From positions 1 through 5,813 of the IMG/VR virus record IMGVR_UViG_2713897074_000004: DNA of 5,813 nucleotides, one strand, 5' to 3'. Source of the DNA: a virus (Duplodnaviria; Heunggongvirae; Uroviricota; Caudoviricetes). Position numbers and translations under genes: made by a program. The notes under the pieces were generated by a model. That model was not told where the DNA came from. It ran no database searches and saw nothing but the letters and a program-made list of their open reading frames with translations. Positions 1 to 5,813 of this stretch are shown piece by piece (position 1 is the stretch's first letter; each line of letters begins with the position of its first letter).

Positions 1-62
1 CCGTTACGCACCACCCCGTCAGTAGCTGAACAGGAGGGACAGCTGATAGAAACAGAAGCCAC
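1..62 (-). CDS. insA: insA 5' fragment (IS1 InsA N-terminus), cut by window edge
   Basis: Minus strand from GTG at 62 translates MASVSISCPSCSATDGVVRN, the CxxC zinc-finger N-terminus of IS1 InsA; runs off the window. Confidence 0.7.
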   Translation of the reverse strand, partial: MASVSISCPSCSATDGVVRN

Positions 63-117
63 TGGAGCACCTCAAAAACACCATCATACACTAAATCAGT
101 AAGTTGGCAGCATCACC
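1..117 (-). mobile_element. IS1: IS1 terminal fragment: reverse complement of the first 117 bp of IS1 (insA-proximal end), element body lies left of the window
   Basis: Reverse complement of 1-117 reads GGTGATGCTGCCAACTTACTGATTTAGTGTATGATGG...GGGGTGGTGCGTAACGG, which I recognise as the IS1 left end including the insA start; exact inverted copy of 5697-5813. Identity from memory, not searched. Confidence 0.9.
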
Positions 118-153
118 GGTTTATCGGCGGCCCAGCGTTATGGCGGTATTTTT

Positions 154-2049
154 GTGCCTCCGCATATTGCGGTCATCCATCAATATATGCGTGAGATGAT
201 GGCAGGCGGCGGCAAAATGATCCTCGGGTCAGACAGCCACACCCGTTACGGTGCATTAGGGACAATGGCAGTCGGTGAGGGCGGCGGTGAGTTGGTAAAA
301 CAGCTGCTTAATGACACCTGGGATATCGACTATCCGGGCGTGGTTGCGGTGCATCTGACCGGAAAACCTGCGCCGTATGTGGGGCCACAGGATGTGGCGC
401 TGGCTATCATTGGCGCGGTGTTCAAAAACGGTTACGTCAAAAACAAAGTCATGGAGTTCGTTGGACCGGGCGTTAGCGCGCTCTCTACCGATTTCCGTAA
501 CAGCGTTGACGTGATGACCACTGAAACGACCTGTTTAAGTTCTGTCTGGCAAACCGATGAAGAAGTCCATAACTGGCTGGCGCTGCACGGTCGCGGCCAG
601 GATTACTGCCAGCTTAACCCTCAACCGATGGCGTACTACGATGGCTGCATCAGCGTTGATTTAAGCGCCATCAAACCAATGATTGCGCTGCCGTTCCACC
701 CGAGCAACGTGTATGAAATCGACACACTGCACCAGAACCTGACCGACATTCTGCGTGAGATTGAAATTGAGTCCGAACGCGTGGCGCACGGTAAAGCCAA
801 ACTCTCGCTGCTGGATAAAGTGGAAAATGGTCGCCTGAAAGTGCAGCAGGGGATTATCGCGGGCTGTTCTGGCGGTAACTACGAAAACGTCATCGCGGCG
901 GCGAATGCACTGCGCGGTCAATCCTGTGGCAATGACACCTTCTCGCTGGCAGTTTACCCGTCATCACAGCCGGTGTTTATGGATCTCGCCAAAAAAGGTG
1001 TGGTAGCAGATTTGATTGGCGCAGGCGCAATCATCAGAACCGCGTTCTGCGGCCCATGCTTTGGCGCGGGCGATACGCCAATCAACAACGGTTTGAGTAT
1101 TCGCCACACCACGCGTAACTTCCCGAACCGCGAAGGCTCTAAGCCAGCTAATGGGCAGATGTCAGCGGTGGCGTTGATGGACGCTCGTTCTATCGCTGCG
1201 ACTGCGGCAAACGGTGGCTATTTAACCTCTGCCAGCGAACTTGATTGCTGGGACAACGTGCCGGAGTACGCCTTCGATGTAACGCCGTATAAAAACCGTG
1301 TTTATCAGGGCTTTGTGAAAGGGGCAACTCAGCAACCGCTGATTTACGGGCCGAACATTAAAGACTGGCCGGAATTGGGTGCGCTGACTGACAATATCGT
1401 CCTGAAAGTGTGCTCGAAGATCCTCGACGAAGTGACCACCACCGACGAACTGATTCCTTCCGGTGAAACCTCTTCTTATCGTTCAAATCCGATTGGTCTG
1501 GCGGAGTTTACCCTGTCTCGCCGCGATCCCGGTTATGTTAGCAGAAGTAAAGCGACTGCTGAGCTGGAAAATCAGCGTCTGGCGGGGAATGTCAGCGAGC
1601 TGACAGAGGTGTTTGCGCGCATTAAGCAGATTGCTGGTCAGGAGCATATTGATCCGCTGCAAACTGAAATTGGCAGCATGGTCTATGCGGTGAAACCAGG
1701 CGATGGTTCTGCGCGTGAACAGGCGGCGAGCTGCCAGCGTGTGATTGGCGGTCTGGCGAATATTGCCGAGGAGTACGCGACTAAACGCTATCGTTCTAAC
1801 GTCATCAACTGGGGGATGTTACCGCTGCAAATGGCGGAAGTACCAACCTTTGAAGTGGGGGATTACATTTACATCCCTAGCATTAAAGCGGCGCTGGATA
1901 ATCCGGGTACGACGTTTAAAGGTTATGTGATCCATGAAGATGCGCCGGTAACGGAAATTACGCTCTATATGGAAAGTCTGACTGCTGAAGAGCGCGAGAT
2001 TATCAAGGCGGGTAGTTTGATTAACTTCAATAAAAACCGTCAGATGTAA
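154..2049 (+). CDS. ybhJ: Aconitase-family hydratase YbhJ, 5'-truncated (C-terminal ~640 codons only); functionally a pseudogene remnant
   Basis: Frame is open from 103 with no ATG/GTG/TTG before GTG at 154; translation carries aconitase-family signatures (GSDSHT, CGPC cluster ligands, swivel-domain GDGSARE). K-12 YbhJ is about 753 aa by recall, so roughly 110 N-terminal codons are replaced by IS1 at 117/118. Gene order ybhJ-ybhC-att lambda matches E. coli. Confidence 0.8.
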
Positions 2050-2065
2050 AAAGCGCCATGTGAAT

Positions 2066-2268
2066 GTAGGTCGCATTCGGCACTTATTGTCGGATGCGAT
2101 GCTTGCGCATCTTATCCGACCTACGAATCGCATCGAATCTGTAGGCCAGATAAGGCATTTTCGCAGCATCCGGCACTTATTGTCGGATGCGATGCTTGCG
2201 CATCTTATCCGACCTACAAATCGCATCGAACCGTAGACCGGATAAGGCGTTTACGCCGCATCCGGCAA
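2066..2268. repeat. BIME: 4-5 REP palindromes in alternating orientation, including a ~62-bp near-identical direct repeat (2076-2137 and 2169-2230)
   Basis: REP-like units GTCGGATGCGATGCTTGCGCATCTTATCCGACCTAC (x2, + orientation) alternate with inverted units TGTAGGCCAGATAAGGCATTTTCGCAGCATCCGGCA and CCGTAGACCGGATAAGGCGTTTACGCCGCATCCGGCA; sits between the convergent 3' ends of ybhJ and ybhC. Confidence 0.75.
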
Positions 2269-2282
2269 ATAGTTAATTGCTC

Positions 2283-3566
2283 TTACTTCTTCGCCTCTGC
2301 AACCACTTTACTACCCACGCCGCGGTTATTGTATTCCCACATGCGGTTGTAGTTAGTGTCATTCAGATTGCGCTGTATTTCGTCGTTATCATCTACGCTG
2401 CCGGTATTACCCGCAAACGGACGATTAGAGATCACCGCATCGGCCCACGGTTTAGCCGTGTTAAAACCTTCGTTGATGGCGCTATCACGGATCACCACCT
2501 GACCGTTGGTATTGGCATCAACATCCAGCGAGCGGCCCAGTTGCGCCACACCATCACCGAAAGCATTGAAACGGCTGTTTACGGCGAGGAAACCGTAGTA
2601 AATGTTGGACAGCGTAGCCGGTGCAAACACATACGCTTCTTGCTGAGTACGTGAGTTCACCACGCGGAATTCGGTGTTATCGAACACCACTGCGCCGCGA
2701 CCAGAAACGATATCCACATCCCCTTCAATGTAGCTGTTGGTCACCAGCGTACGCGGCTGACGATTCGTTTCCAGACGGTTCTGTACACCGCTGTTGGTGA
2801 CAAAGAAGGTGTTCTGACGACCGAGAATGTTAACGTTGTTAATCTGTACCTGGTCACCATCAGTACGCAGTGCCACCGCCGGATGGTTACCTGCATCTAC
2901 GCTATCGCCCAGCGTGTTTTCGATGGTCAGATTTTGCAGTTGCAGGCCATTGTTTTGTGACCAGAAGACCGCAGAGCAGAGAACACCGATACTGTCGCTG
3001 CGTTTGCTCTGGCAGCTATCGTACATATACCACGCTGGTTTACCTGGCATATATTTGCCGCGCGGGTTGACGTCGTGACGCCAGTCGGCAGGGCTCATGC
3101 CACCATCAAGGGAAAGCCCAATCTTCACATCAATCGGTTTTTCACCTGTACCGTACAGAGTAATTCCACCCGGAGCGGCAGGGACATATACCGTTCCCTG
3201 ATACTCACCAGGCATCACGGCAATATACTGGCGCTTGTTGGTACGCTTGATAATTGCCGCATCTACCGCCGCCTGAATCGTGGTATGCGTTACACCTTGA
3301 GTGCCCGCCGGGCCGACAACAAAGTCAGGTTGCGCAGGCAGGGTAATCGGGGAAGGATTCCACGCTGCAGCACCTGGTGTCAGGGATGCAAAATAGTGTT
3401 GAGCATCGAAATTCTGCGCTTCTTTTGCCGATAGAATCGGGCGAGAAGAGGTACCAGGCGCGGTTTGATCAGAAGGACGTTGATCGGGCGGGGTTGAGCT
3501 ACAGGCGGTCAGCGTCACGCCAAAAGCCAATGCCAGCGCCAGACGGGAAACTGAAAATGTGTTCAC
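2283..3566 (-). CDS. ybhC: YbhC, pectinesterase-family outer-membrane lipoprotein (annotated acyl-CoA thioesterase)
   Basis: 427-aa ORF with lipoprotein signal peptide and lipobox (MNTFSVSRLALALAFGVTLTAC|SS); GTG start at 3566 preceded by GGAG; sequence and position next to att lambda match E. coli ybhC by recall. Confidence 0.85.
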   Translation of the reverse strand: MNTFSVSRLALALAFGVTLTACSSTPPDQRPSDQTAPGTSSRPILSAKEAQNFDAQHYFASLTPGAAAWNPSPITLPAQPDFVVGPAGTQGVTHTTIQAAVDAAIIKRTNKRQYIAVMPGEYQGTVYVPAAPGGITLYGTGEKPIDVKIGLSLDGGMSPADWRHDVNPRGKYMPGKPAWYMYDSCQSKRSDSIGVLCSAVFWSQNNGLQLQNLTIENTLGDSVDAGNHPAVALRTDGDQVQINNVNILGRQNTFFVTNSGVQNRLETNRQPRTLVTNSYIEGDVDIVSGRGAVVFDNTEFRVVNSRTQQEAYVFAPATLSNIYYGFLAVNSRFNAFGDGVAQLGRSLDVDANTNGQVVIRDSAINEGFNTAKPWADAVISNRPFAGNTGSVDDNDEIQRNLNDTNYNRMWEYNNRGVGSKVVAEAKK

Positions 3567-3599
3567 AGGTTGCTCCGGGCTATGAAATAGAAAAATGAA

Positions 3600-3705
3600 T
3601 CCGTTGAAGCCTGCTTTTTTATACTAAGTTGGCATTATAAAAAAGCATTGCTTATCAATTTGTTGCAACGAACAGGTCACTATCAGTCAAAATAAAATCA
3701 TTATT
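3600..3705 (+). other. attL: Phage lambda attL (B-O-P'): 15-bp common core 3613-3627, IHF H' site, arm-type Int sites P'1-P'3
   Basis: Bacterial arm ...TTGAAGCCTGC followed by core GCTTTTTTATACTAA and phage arm GTTGGCATTATAAAAAAGCATTGCTTATCAATTTGTTGCAACGAACAGGTCACTATCAGTCAAAATAAAATCATTAT; IHF consensus TATCAATTTGTTG at 3653-3665; arm-type sites AGGTCACTAT, CAGTCAAAAT, AAATCATTAT at about 3675-3705. Confidence 0.85.
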
Positions 3706-4771
3706 TGATTTCAATTTTGTCCCACTCCCTGCCTCTGTCATCACGATACTGTGATGCCATGGTGTCCGACTTATGCCCGAGAAGATGTTGAGCAAACTTA
3801 TCGCTTATCTGCTTCTCATAGAGTCTTGCAGACAAACTGCGCAACTCGTGAAAGGTAGGCGGATCCCCTTCGAAGGAAAGACCTGATGCTTTTCGTGCGC
3901 GCATAAAATACCTTGATACTGTGCCGGATGAAAGCGGTTCGCGACGAGTAGATGCAATTATGGTTTCTCCGCCAAGAATCTCTTTGCATTTATCAAGTGT
4001 TTCCTTCATTGATATTCCGAGAGCATCAACATGCAATACTGTTGGGATGGCAATTTTTACGCCTGTTTTGCTTTGCTCGACATAAAGATATCCATCTACG
4101 ATATCAGACCACTTCATTTCGCATAAATCACCAACTCGTTGCCCGGTAACAACAGCCAGTTCCATTGCAAGTCTGAGCCAACATGGTGATGATTCTGCTG
4201 CTTGATAAATTTTCAGGTATTCGTCAGCCGTAAGTCTTGATCTCCTTACCTCTGATTTTGCTGCGCGAGTGGCAGCGACAGGGTTTGTTGTTATATGGCC
4301 TTCAGCTATTGCCTCTCGGAATGCATCGCTCAGTGTTGATCTGATTAACTTGGCTGACGCCGCCTTGCCCTCGTCTATGTATCCATTGAGCATTGCCGCA
4401 ATTTCTTTTGTGGTGATGTCTTCAAGTGGAGCATCAGGCAGACCCCTCCTTATTGCTTTAATTTTGCTCATGTAATTTATGAGTGTCTTCTGCTTGATTC
4501 CTCTGCTGGCCAGGATTTTTTCGTAGCGATCAAGCCATGAATGTAACGTAACGGAATTATCACTGTTGATTCTCGCTGTCAGAGGCTTGTGTTTGTGTCC
4601 TGAAAATAACTCAATGTTGGCCTGTATAGCTTCAGTGATTGCGATTCGCCTGTCTCTGCCTAATCCAAACTCTTTACCCGTCCTTGGGTCCCTGTAGCAG
4701 TAATATCCATTGTTTCTTATATAAAGGTTAGGGGGTAAATCCCGGCGCTCATGACTTCGCCTTCTTCCCAT
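3701..4771 (-). CDS. int: Lambda integrase Int (tyrosine recombinase), apparently intact
   Basis: 356-aa product MGRRRSHERRDLPPNLYIRNNGYYCYRDPRTGKEFGLGRD... recognised as lambda Int; catalytic signatures present (HELRSLSARLY, LLGHKSDTMASQY with the active-site Tyr); overlaps xis by 23 bp as in lambda. Confidence 0.95.
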   Translation of the reverse strand: MGRRRSHERRDLPPNLYIRNNGYYCYRDPRTGKEFGLGRDRRIAITEAIQANIELFSGHKHKPLTARINSDNSVTLHSWLDRYEKILASRGIKQKTLINYMSKIKAIRRGLPDAPLEDITTKEIAAMLNGYIDEGKAASAKLIRSTLSDAFREAIAEGHITTNPVAATRAAKSEVRRSRLTADEYLKIYQAAESSPCWLRLAMELAVVTGQRVGDLCEMKWSDIVDGYLYVEQSKTGVKIAIPTVLHVDALGISMKETLDKCKEILGGETIIASTRREPLSSGTVSRYFMRARKASGLSFEGDPPTFHELRSLSARLYEKQISDKFAQHLLGHKSDTMASQYRDDRGREWDKIEIK

Positions 4772-4967
4772 TTCTGATCCTCTTCAAAAGGCTACCTGTT
4801 ACTGGTCGATTTAAGTCAACCTTTACCGCTGATTCGTGGAACAGATACTCTCTTCCATCCTTAACCGGAGGAGGGAATATCCTGCACTCGCGTACCCATC
4901 GACGAACTGTTTCAAGGCTTCTTGGGCGTCGCTGGCGTGCGTTCCACTCCTGAAGTGTCAAGTACAT
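4749..4967 (-). CDS. xis: Lambda excisionase Xis
   Basis: 72-aa product MYLTLQEWNARQRRPRSLETVRRWVRECRIFPPPVKDGREYLFHESAVKVDLNRPVTGSLLKRIRNGKKAKS recognised as lambda Xis. Confidence 0.95.
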   Translation of the reverse strand: MYLTLQEWNARQRRPRSLETVRRWVRECRIFPPPVKDGREYLFHESAVKVDLNRPVTGSLLKRIRNGKKAKS

Positions 4968-4995
4968 CGCAAAGTCTCCGCAATTACACGCAAGA
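4950..4995 (-). promoter_or_regulatory. pI: pI region: cII-binding TTGC-N6-TTGC tetrad repeats immediately upstream of and overlapping the xis start (cII-activated int promoter)
   Basis: Minus strand reads TTGCGTGTAATTGCG (TTGC at 4993-4990 and 4983-4980, 6-nt spacer), 13 nt upstream of the xis ATG; matches the lambda pI/cII site as I recall it. Exact -10 and transcription start not determined here. Confidence 0.5.
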
Positions 4996-5014
4996 AAAAA
5001 CCGCCATCAGGCGG
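4995..5014 (-). terminator. Putative weak intrinsic terminator at the orf55 stop (5-bp GC stem, 4-nt loop, 6 U)
   Basis: Minus-strand RNA GCCGCCUGAUGGCGGUUUUUU: stem CCGCC/GGCGG followed by UUUUUU. Short stem; function unverified. Confidence 0.3.
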
Positions 5015-5174
5015 CTTGGTGTTCTTTCAGTTCTTCAATTCGAATATTGGTTACGTCTGCATGTGCTATCTGCGCCCATATCATCCAGTGGTTATAACAG
5101 TCGTTGATGTTCTCTGCTTCGATAACCCTGTTGAATGGCTCTCCATTCCATTCACCTGTGACTCGGAAGTGCAT
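5007..5174 (-). CDS. Small lambda hypothetical protein (orf55-like, 55 aa) between xis and the ea8.5 slot
   Basis: ATG at 5174 preceded by GGAG (7-nt spacer); translates MHFRVTGEWNGEPFNRVIEAENINDCYNHWMIWAQIAHADVTNIRIEELKEHQAA, stop at 5007-5009; below the length cutoff of the supplied ORF track; position matches the small ORF next to xis in lambda (by recall). Confidence 0.6.
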   Translation of the reverse strand: MHFRVTGEWNGEPFNRVIEAENINDCYNHWMIWAQIAHADVTNIRIEELKEHQAA

Positions 5175-5185
5175 TTATCATCTCC

Positions 5186-5212
5186 ATAAAACAAAACTCG
5201 CCGTAGCGAGTT
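5186..5212 (-). terminator. Putative rho-independent terminator downstream of the 142-aa gene (7-bp stem, 4-nt loop, U-rich tail)
   Basis: Minus-strand RNA AACUCGC-UACG-GCGAGUU followed by UUGUUUUAU; lies 46 nt after the stop at 5258 and just before the orf55 RBS. Confidence 0.45.
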
Positions 5213-5257
5213 CAGATATAATTTCCACCAAAGGCAGTAGTTGCTTGATGCTAAGAA

Positions 5258-5686
5258 TTATTCAATATCTATTCCTGTAATATCTTTTATCTTTTTCCTT
5301 GCAAAGCCTTTTGCTAGTGATTTTGAAACACTCATAAGTGTACTAATTCCCTCATCCTTAAAGTTTGTTTTTATAGCTTGCCAGACATCCTTTTGACGTA
5401 AGTCAGCAATAAAATCATGCCCTCTTGCTGTCAACCTCAGTGGTACTTCGATCCAACTATATCCAACACCTTCCCCTAACGCTTTGGACAATATATGACC
5501 GAACCCAGGTTTTCCATCAACCCTGACTATTAATTCGTAGTCACATAATAATCGCATATGGAAAATAAAATCTTGGTCATATCTATTAAAGCCATTATCC
5601 TCTAGTTCACTAAGCATCGTGTCAGGGCCACGAGTTTTTTCGAATGCGATAAGTAGATCTTTTAGATATTGCTGGTCTAATTTCAT
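5258..5686 (-). CDS. Hypothetical protein, 142 aa, unknown function; prophage accessory (moron-like) gene in the slot occupied by ea8.5 in lambda
   Basis: ATG at 5686 preceded by GGAGG with a 5-nt spacer (CACCGGAGGCGGCAATG); product MKLDQQYLKDLLIAFEKTRGPDTMLSELEDNGF...KKIKDITGIDIE; no hydrophobic segment long enough for a transmembrane helix, no signal peptide, one Cys; lower GC than the neighbouring lambda and host genes. The ORF track extends it to a TTG at 5710 inside the IS1 end, which I reject. Confidence 0.7.
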   Translation of the reverse strand: MKLDQQYLKDLLIAFEKTRGPDTMLSELEDNGFNRYDQDFIFHMRLLCDYELIVRVDGKPGFGHILSKALGEGVGYSWIEVPLRLTARGHDFIADLRQKDVWQAIKTNFKDEGISTLMSVSKSLAKGFARKKIKDITGIDIE

Positions 5687-5696
5687 TGCCGCCTCC

Positions 5697-5813
5697 GGTG
5701 ATGCTGCCAACTTACTGATTTAGTGTATGATGGTGTTTTTGAGGTGCTCCAGTGGCTTCTGTTTCTATCAGCTGTCCCTCCTGTTCAGCTACTGACGGGG
5801 TGGTGCGTAACGG
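5697..5813 (+). mobile_element. IS1: IS1 terminal fragment: first 117 bp of IS1 (insA-proximal end), element body continues right of the window
   Basis: GGTGATGCTGCCAACTTACTGATTTAGTGTATGATGGTGTTTTTGAGGTGCTCCAGTGGCTTCTGTTTCTATCAGCTGTCCCTCCTGTTCAGCTACTGACGGGGTGGTGCGTAACGG recognised as the IS1 end; exact inverted copy of 1-117. Confidence 0.9.
5752..5813 (+). CDS. insA: insA 5' fragment (IS1 InsA N-terminus), cut by window edge
   Basis: GTG at 5752 then MASVSISCPSCSATDGVVRN...; runs off the window. Confidence 0.7.
   Translation, partial: MASVSISCPSCSATDGVVRN

Follow-up and report, generated by a model that had tools for sequence, protein, structure and literature searches.

We have found that the window, the whole 5,813-nt stretch of DNA analysed here, is very probably a complete short-read contig in which a chromosomal segment lies between an old IS1 copy in a prophage and a recent, inverted IS1 insertion in ybhJ. 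In the structure that we propose, the 5.58-kb segment would be enclosed by a pair of full IS1 copies, of one and the same variant, in inverted orientation, with both IRL ends facing the segment. Nothing in this goes beyond the ordinary biology of IS1, and no new mobile element is involved. The first-pass annotation had offered two readings of the window, namely (a) a whole short-read contig that ends in a collapsed IS1 repeat and (b) a segment truly flanked by two inverted IS1 copies, resembling a composite transposon or an invertible module. These are not alternatives, and both are partly true.

A repeat search and a script established that positions 1-119 of the window are the exact reverse complement of positions 5695-5813, the two arms being 5575 nt apart. 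A perfect inverted repeat of 119 nt cannot be a product of chance. IS1 accounts for 117 nt of each arm: an IS1 left end assigned to the recent ybhJ copy (1-117, minus strand) and its exact complement assigned to the older, lineage-fixed prophage copy (5697-5813, plus strand), each of which stops at the contig end. The two extra nucleotides per arm (GG at 118-119 and CC at 5695-5696) reflect unique flanks that both read CC beside IS1, which is a 1-in-16 coincidence. The 117 nt are identical to nt 1-117 of the 768-bp IS1 annotated in complete genomes (e.g. L001, 14580-15347), and the window ends are identical to the annotated IS1 in L001, L002 and L008. They begin with the left inverted repeat (IRL) GGTGATGCTGCCAACTTACTGAT, of approximately 23 bp (5697-5719, and 95-117 as reverse complement), and end with 62 nt from the beginning of insA, whose GTG start at IS1 nt 56 falls at 5752-5754 on the plus strand and, for the minus-strand copy, at 62-60. 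The terminal repeat, the start of insA and the sequence are those of the 768-bp chromosomal IS1 of E. coli, and the ybhJ copy has a 9-bp duplication. This exact 117-nt complementarity bears out the first-pass claim that the same insA-proximal (IRL) end of IS1 stands inverted at both termini. The inner flanks had also been quoted correctly as lacking a matching target-site duplication, since GGTTTATCG (118-126) and GCCGCCTCC (5688-5696) are unrelated in either orientation.

How much IS1 is present at the contig ends depends on the assembly. In an independently assembled ENA contig (ERZ27246564:k141_18856), the 5575-nt core is the same and the arms measure 141 and 140 nt. This contig differs from the window by one mismatch in 5813 nt (position 3432, synonymous in ybhC), and its left IS1 arm extends 22 IS1 nt further. 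Logan contigs L004-L007, from 15 listed runs, carry the left junction with only 25-27 nt of IS1. Because the arms differ in this way (119, 141/140 and 25-27 nt), the IS1 length at the contig ends is set by the assembler and not by biology. Related ETEC chromosomes each yield at least 40 matching pieces, and the sole repeated part of the query is the IS1 end. High copy number in the lineage is shared with other IS1 insertions of E. coli, as is the position of the contig ends exactly in the repeat. The window is very probably an entire de Bruijn-graph contig from ETEC-lineage E. coli, presumably built by MEGAHIT at a k that we infer to be 119, and it halts on both sides where unique sequence meets multi-copy IS1. 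The two large contigs described below have IRR arms of 137 and 139 nt, so that a 141-mer still has room for 4 and 2 nt of flank, and a simple rule in which arm length equals k accounts for these lengths only in part. Reading (a) is supported by the assembler-dependent arm length, by k141_18856 and by the Logan contigs.

The left junction joins IS1 to codon 111 of ybhJ (insertion site at ybhJ nt 331) and recurs in four ENA contigs as well as in the Logan contigs from the 15 listed runs. It occurs in none of 5,426 complete RefSeq genomes, and a 40-nt pattern spanning it had no match in JGI metagenome contigs or GTDB species representatives. Apart from the absence of this site from those RefSeq genomes, nothing of substance sets the insertion apart from known IS1 insertions. 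The partner of the left junction closes the 316-kb contig k141_47121 (L009) of the same ENA assembly, which runs from ybhJ codons 1-113 through GGTTTATCG into the IRR of IS1. The 137 nt of IRR that follow GGTTTATCG have 0 mismatches to the variant resident in the prophage and 9 to the IS1A type. One copy of GGTTTATCG therefore lies at 118-126 (plus strand) of the window and the other at 10331-10339 of L009, beside the IRR, so that a 9-bp target-site duplication flanks this single element. IS1 target duplications are 8 or 9 bp long (PMC12428005). The partner junction was also predicted as a protein, consisting of YbhJ residues 1-113 followed by 26 residues read from the resident-variant IRR. 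The version with a 9-bp duplication and the resident variant was found exactly in a collection of 15 billion proteins, from which versions with an 8- or 10-bp duplication, and the version with an IS1A-type IRR, were absent.

IS1 severs ybhJ from its own start. The 3' part of this aconitase-family hydratase gene (codons 111-753; 118-2049, plus strand) is collinear with annotated ybhJ at 9001-10932 of L001, and gene callers report a remnant of 620 aa whose start is ATG 187. That remnant is on record, with the Pfam Aconitase domain, and truncated YbhJ proteins starting at GTG 154, ATG 196 or ATG 199 had no exact protein match. An NCBI contig of 4,785,142 bp is listed as encoding both truncated YbhJ products. 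The left copy would thus have arisen by a recent, ordinary IS1 transposition into ybhJ that generated the 9-bp duplication GGTTTATCG, with the nearby prophage IS1, or a further copy of that variant, as its likeliest source. Simple insertion, with the segment keeping its native orientation, is the route that we favor, and the resulting arrangement would probably have no function beyond inactivation of ybhJ.

The right junction, between a DUF2513 gene and IS1, belongs to the old copy. At least 21 complete ETEC-type chromosomes share it without a difference over 634 nt, and in L001 the full 768-bp IS1 (14580-15347) has the DUF2513 gene on one side and a truncated lipocalin gene on the other. This copy, common to many ETEC genomes, is an old resident of a degenerate lambda-like prophage that occupies the lambda attachment site. 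Its flanks, GCCGCCTCC and GGTATTCTC, form no target duplication, indicating a later deletion or recombination. The fourth junction, which joins the IRR to the lipocalin remnant, terminates the 204-kb contig k141_35400 (L018) of the same assembly. That the two window junctions belong to different events, as had been suggested, agrees with a recent ybhJ insertion that has a duplication versus an older prophage copy that has none.

The four junctions are thus distributed over three contigs of one assembly, and two IS1 copies bracket the segment. Two copies are required because one IS1 has one IRL and both window junctions are IRL. The assembled IS1 amounts to 117 nt per copy (141 in k141_18856), with matching IRR ends on L009 and L018, and each junction is expected to continue into a full 768-bp IS1; the prophage copy measures 768 bp in 21 closed relatives. 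A precedent exists in the complete genome E66, in which a second IS1 of the same variant lies inverted, 0.55 kb from the resident copy. It has a 9-bp duplication, CGGCGAGTT, on its sides, and the segment between the two copies is in native orientation. Reading (b) therefore holds to the extent that two inverted IS1 copies do flank the segment, as the complementary outer junctions on L009 and L018 attest, while the composite-transposon origin that it implied does not stand.

Such an origin would mean that IS1, segment and IS1 had moved as a unit together with int, xis and the DUF2513 gene, in the manner of Tn9 or of IS1-flanked enterotoxin elements. Tn9 has direct IS1 repeats, and the heat-stable enterotoxin element Tn1681 is bracketed by inverted ones. 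The window resembles these transposons in having two IS1 copies around a cargo of a few kilobases, with the same geometry as the inverted case, and IS1-bracketed modules do exist in the pathotype, since on the ETEC plasmid pEntH10407 the toxin genes have IS1 copies around them (PMC2762410). However, it is the single ybhJ copy, and not the whole unit, that has the 9-bp duplication on its two sides, and the unit has unlike outer flanks (GGTTTATCG on the ybhJ side and GGTATTCTC on the lipocalin side). Collinearity with the normal modABC...ybhI-ybhJ-ybhC-attL chromosome and with the prophage remnant extends through the segment and into both outside contigs. In 1,738 complete genomes, a single place accounts for at least 80% of the window; that place was the ybhJ-ybhC locus in all 10 of the listed regions that were opened, no listed match lay in another context, and the segment was collinear with the native ybhJ-ybhC-attL locus wherever a locus was examined. 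Unlike IS1 composite transposons, this unit is not enclosed by a duplication, has no second location among the loci examined and gives no sign of ever having moved, and the cargo is native chromosome plus a prophage end in its normal place. From the duplication, the outer flanks and the collinearity, we conclude that the segment was already in place when IS1 came to bracket it and that it did not come in as a composite transposon, an origin that we consider highly improbable. An assembly artefact, in which a chimeric join or end trimming made one or both junctions unreal, is just as improbable. The exact symmetry of the ends has a length that is a plausible value of k, and the left junction is in no complete genome, yet the four ENA contigs reproduce that junction, as do, with a different assembler, the Logan contigs of the 15 listed runs. 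The partner of this junction, with the matching 9-bp duplication, exists as well, and 21 closed chromosomes contain the right junction. Least credible of all is a single IS1 that closes the segment into a circle or supplies both junctions. The identical end sequences favor it and nothing more does, while geometry excludes it, both junctions being IRL when one copy has one IRL and one IRR; moreover, two separate IRR junctions lead into the 316-kb and 204-kb chromosomal contigs of the same assembly.

A more serious rival to simple insertion concerns the orientation of the segment. The resident IS1 may have transposed replicatively into ybhJ, or the inverted copies may have recombined, leaving the segment inverted or present in both orientations. 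The same IS1 variant stands at the IRR ends of both flanking copies, inverted repeats of the same IS flank the segment as they would an invertible one, and the two IRL ends face the segment in the geometry of intramolecular replicative transposition in its inversion mode. By derivation, the four junction sequences would be the same as those left by a simple inverted insertion. Adjacent rearrangements are consistent with this pathway as well. In draft genome L014 the junction of IRR and lipocalin remnant is kept and the IRL side is joined to ybhD, which resembles an IS1-adjacent deletion, the sister outcome of inversion; L010 holds another such deletion, with a mosaic IS1 that has 13 mismatches from the resident copy. 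IS1/Tn9 is among the elements that give deletions and inversions by intramolecular transposition (PMC9330008). The products of IS1, IS26 and Tn3-type intramolecular events are likewise inverted copies of one IS variant with the same end facing the segment, accompanied here by sister deletions from the same IS1 end in L010 and L014. Their diagnostic feature is the orientation of the enclosed segment, which the window sequence alone does not tell apart. Against the inversion, E66, the one closed genome in which a comparable inverted copy lies close by, shows a simple insertion with the segment in native orientation. Simple insertion is also the commoner outcome of IS1 transposition. Duplicative inversion differs from the favored explanation in orientation and pathway only. 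We consider it unlikely, though by no means negligible, that the segment was inverted in this way, and we give no better chance to a segment that flips by way of the 768-bp inverted copies. If either were true, a circulating ETEC clone would carry a natural IS1-bounded invertible, and in principle transposable, module with a functional lambda int/xis pair.

The enclosed segment is a stretch of native chromosome that ends in prophage. Palindromic repeats of the REP/BIME type occupy the ybhJ-ybhC intergenic region (2060-2270, no strand assigned), as two units 92-93 nt apart that belong to direct-repeat families D1 and D2, and the Logan contigs break at these repeats. They are followed by ybhC (2283-3566, minus strand), which encodes a pectinesterase-family lipoprotein annotated as an acyl-CoA thioester hydrolase and was assigned from the ORF list, the L001 annotation and PF01095. 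The lambda att core GCTTTTTTATACTAA (3613-3627, plus strand) marks attL, where the bacterial ybhC side meets the P' arm of the prophage, and the lambda alignment starts here: window positions 3613-5222 correspond to 27724-29333 of lambda J02459 with 98.9% identity. Within this alignment lie int (3701-4771, minus strand), an intact lambda-type integrase gene of 356 aa assigned from the ORF list, annotation, Pfam integrase domain and lambda alignment; xis (4749-4967, minus strand), a 72-aa excisionase gene assigned from the ORF list, annotation, lambda alignment and PF07825; and a 55-aa lambda-type ORF (5007-5174, minus strand; phrog_676, E = 1.7e-39). The att core with its P' arm, the tyrosine integrase and the excisionase are arranged in lambda order as an attL-int-xis module. 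The left end of the lambda prophage beside ybhC is accordingly the closest known counterpart, sharing the 98.9% identity, the att core at 3613-3627 and intact int and xis. Compared with lambda, the prophage here is a remnant: past the DUF2513 gene, IS1 links it to the truncated lipocalin gene and to lysis and tail genes that are scattered. The DUF2513 gene itself (5258-5686, minus strand; PF10711; phrog_585, function unknown; WP_000762731.1 in L001) is a prophage accessory gene of 142 aa whose Shine-Dalgarno motif, GGAGG, directly adjoins the IS1 end. A defense role was considered for this cargo, but its protein had no match in PADLOC. A candidate outward or hybrid promoter reading from the IS1 end into this gene was rejected, the sole promoter-like site there being the inward insA promoter (5704-5731, plus strand).

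Strain PSS-16 had given an apparent 100% match to the whole window, which was discarded as four BLAST pieces joined over 10.5 kb. The locus in that strain holds an IS3 and two other IS1 copies, leaves ybhJ intact, and is not the same structure.

For the clone from which the window derives, the structure gives a scaffold order of 316 kb, IS1, 5.58 kb, IS1 and 204 kb, and the IS1 insertion at ybhJ nt 331 is a lineage marker. It also calls for caution in the interpretation of similar contigs. The same IS end inverted at both contig termini is the assembler outcome for a segment between inverted copies of a multi-copy IS, and symmetric IS contig ends are not by themselves evidence of a transposon. 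A side observation, that the AT-rich 5' end of ybhJ carries many independent IS1 insertions in E. coli, fits known IS1 behavior and may be of interest for work on IS target choice and ETEC genome dynamics.

A repeat search identified terminal arms of the window (1-119 and 5695-5813) that are 100% complementary and separated by 5575 nt, and a script confirmed the 119 bases as exact. The IS1 portion comprises 117 nt per side and starts with GGTGATGCTGCC at 5697; the two extra arm bases match because CC adjoins IS1 in both unique flanks. These 117 nt correspond to nt 1-117 of the annotated 768-bp IS1 of complete genomes (e.g. 14580-15347 of L001, from NZ_CP024275.1) and include the left inverted repeat (IRL) and the start of insA (GTG at 5752). 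Thus, both junctions involve the insA-proximal end, directed outward from the segment, in agreement with the first-pass annotation of one IS1 end, 117 nt long, in inverted orientation on each side.

The right junction, between the DUF2513 gene and IS1, is old and common to the lineage. A 634-nt stretch running from the DUF2513 gene into the IS1 end is present, 100% identical and in a single piece, in at least 21 complete chromosomes, mostly of ETEC isolates (e.g. O6:H16 strains, TW10598, B2C and FMU073332), which have at most 2 mismatches to window 118-5813. In L001, the DUF2513 gene and a truncated lipocalin gene are separated by one 768-bp IS1, and beyond it are dispersed lysis and tail genes from a decayed prophage. 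The flanks of this prophage IS1, GCCGCCTCC and GGTATTCTC, show no duplication, which points to deletion or recombination after the original insertion.

The left junction, where IS1 meets codon 111 of ybhJ, is real, recurrent, recent and clone-specific. IS1 at this position was absent from 5,426 complete RefSeq genomes. For window 1-420, as for a 63-nt junction probe, the best matches were two-piece joins from IS1 copies elsewhere, and the candidate full-length match to the window, H1, was rejected as a joining artefact. A 620-aa YbhJ remnant (gene caller, ATG at 187) is recorded on eight contigs, four from ENA (5-10 kb) and four from Logan (listed for 15 sequencing runs); all of the Logan contigs are mismatch-free against the window, with 25-27 nt of IS1 each. 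The window differs by a single base from the nearest complete genomes at each of two positions: the variant at 2784 is common to the window and L003 (ENA contig ERZ27246564:k141_18856), and that at 3432 (synonymous, in codon 45 of ybhC) is absent from both L001 and L003. Based on these differences, the ybhJ::IS1 clone represents a sublineage for which RefSeq has no closed genome.

The partner protein predicted for a simple insertion consists of YbhJ 1-113 followed by read-through into the right end of IS1 (IRR), and its versions covered 8-, 9- and 10-bp duplications with two IS1 variants. Only P0001, with a 9-bp duplication and the prophage-resident IS1 variant, was present in a 15-billion-protein collection, from which the other predicted versions were absent. 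P0001 is encoded at the extreme end of L009, a 316-kb contig (k141_47121) from the ENA assembly that also contains L003, with the gene order modABC-ybhA-pgl-ybhD-ybhH-ybhI-ybhJ' ending in ...TTTTTGGTTTATCG and then 137 nt of IS1 IRR. Over these 137 nt, the sequence agrees with the resident variant throughout and differs from the IS1A type at 9 positions. The fourth junction, IRR beside the truncated lipocalin gene, forms the end of L018, a 204-kb contig (k141_35400) of that assembly, where 139 nt of this variant are present. The four junctions give the genome order 316-kb contig, IS1, 5.58-kb segment, IS1, 204-kb contig. Since each IS1 has one IRL, two IRL ends need two copies, and this geometry excludes a single IS1 copy or a circle. 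The segment thus lies between an inverted pair of IS1 copies, one fixed in the lineage and the other, which splits ybhJ, probably a recent insertion with a 9-bp duplication; this is an ordinary explanation of the window ends.

A 9-bp duplication, GGTTTATCG, flanks the ybhJ copy of IS1 itself (window 118-126 and L009 10331-10339), as is characteristic of IS1 transposition, which makes 8- or 9-bp duplications (PMC12428005). Around the whole IS1-segment-IS1 unit, the outer flanks are unrelated and the chromosomal context is native, which argues against insertion of the unit as a composite transposon. The earlier suggestion of a composite-transposon-like or invertible module therefore stands only in part: the four junctions establish that an inverted IS1 pair flanks the segment, but with no unit-level duplication and a native location there is no evidence for a mobile composite element. 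The two inverted copies, each presumably a full 768-bp IS1, could recombine, flipping the segment at low frequency.

A simple inverted insertion and a duplicative inversion, in which the resident prophage IS1 moved by intramolecular replicative transposition and inverted the segment, yield identical four junction sequences. What tells the two routes apart is solely the orientation of the intervening segment, which is invisible in short-read contigs. For IS1/Tn9, intramolecular transposition is known to yield deletions or inversions (PMC9330008). We regard simple insertion as the probable origin and duplicative inversion as rather unlikely. Local activity of this IS1 in relatives includes both simple insertion and deletion. 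In the closed ETEC genome E66 (NZ_CM173951.1; L008 8047-10124), the DUF2513 gene alone lies between a pair of inverted IS1 copies, both of this variant; the second copy is 0.55 kb from the resident and has its own 9-bp duplication, CGGCGAGTT, and the native orientation of the intervening segment, together with this duplication, indicates simple insertion there. A third E66 IS1 (IS1B type, duplication TGAAGTCTT) interrupts ybhI. In the draft genomes L014 and L010 (10413-11200), the junction of IRR with the lipocalin remnant is kept and the IRL side adjoins ybhD, with loss of the DUF2513 gene through ybhH, reaching inside ybhD to differing end points. The IS1 in L014 is the resident copy unchanged; that in L010 has 13 mismatches and may be a recombinant of two variants.

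The length of the IS1 arms varies with assembly. L003 (5856 nt) extends the window by 22 and 21 bases of IS1 at its ends and mismatches it once, at 3432; its arms of 141 and 140 nt consist of CC and 139 or 138 nt of IS1, and its name bears the MEGAHIT label k141. The MEGAHIT default k list includes 119, and the 119-nt window arms would be expected from the same graph at k = 119; k = 117 fits equally. The k-mer CC+IS1[1-117], common to both junctions, forms a branching node. Related ETEC chromosomes each gave at least 40 matching pieces to a query whose sole repeated part is the IS1 end, so this repeat is highly multi-copy. Together with the longer arms of L003 and the short IS1 ends of the Logan contigs, this bears out the other initial reading, a whole short-read contig stopping in an IS1 repeat. 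IS1 at k141 contig ends is not always exactly k (137 nt in L009, 139 in L018 and 138 at the right of L003), and 4, 2 and 2 flank bases complete 141, 141 and 140, respectively; the four-base case (ATCG) would require another junction to share four flank bases, or end trimming.

The first 330 nt of ybhJ and a few bases upstream (L001 8663-9001, ybhJ nt -7 to 331) are a repeated IS1 target in E. coli. IRL faces the gene body at most roughly 340 bp upstream of the window junction in 15 complete genomes. Nine of these were opened (L020-L028) and have nine different junction positions, from nt -7 to 217, three with 8- or 9-bp duplications and six whose far side shows either foreign DNA or a deletion reaching ybhH or ybhD. 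Oppositely oriented IS1 occurs in the same region in 29 genomes, including ETEC H10407. IS1 prefers AT-rich targets, which fits the G+C content of 36-38% here versus about 53% around it; the window's site (nt 331) is at the edge of this tract. In 13P484A, H2 and CH4784 (L022, L023 and L024, about 1-860 each), IS1 joins ybhJ to foreign DNA (a Tn3-family transposase fragment, IS4321 and an acyl-CoA carboxylase gene), suggesting IS1-bounded islands inserted at this site.

The segment carries ybhJ codons 111 through the stop (118-2049) and, on the minus strand, ybhC (2283-3566), int (3701-4771), xis (4749-4967), a 55-aa ORF (5007-5174) and the 142-aa DUF2513 gene (5258-5686). REP/BIME-like repeats between ybhJ and ybhC (2060-2270) comprise two units spaced 92-93 nt apart, with 65-nt copies 97% alike and 35-nt copies 86% alike, and the Logan contigs end within them. 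Window 3613-5222, from the lambda att core (3613-3627), aligns with lambda J02459 27724-29333 at 98.9% identity, which marks this as the attL side of a lambda-type prophage integrated at the classical attachment site. One-place coverage of at least 80% of the window in 1,738 of the 5,426 complete E. coli genomes indicates that about one third of sequenced strains have a lambda-int-type prophage end there. The DUF2513 protein matches one PHROG of unknown function and none of the PADLOC models. Its gene keeps a Shine-Dalgarno GGAGG touching the IS1 end, with IS1 10 bp upstream of the start codon (window 5684-5710), and its open frame extends to a TTG at 5710 within IS1, giving a 150-aa ORF. A search for an outward promoter-like site at this IS1 end found none and detected the inward insA promoter alone. 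On the minus strand, there are terminator-like hairpins with T runs at 4998-5017 and 5194-5213, just downstream of the 55-aa ORF and the DUF2513 gene, and 5 terminator-like sites were found in 4950-5813 versus 0.5 expected.
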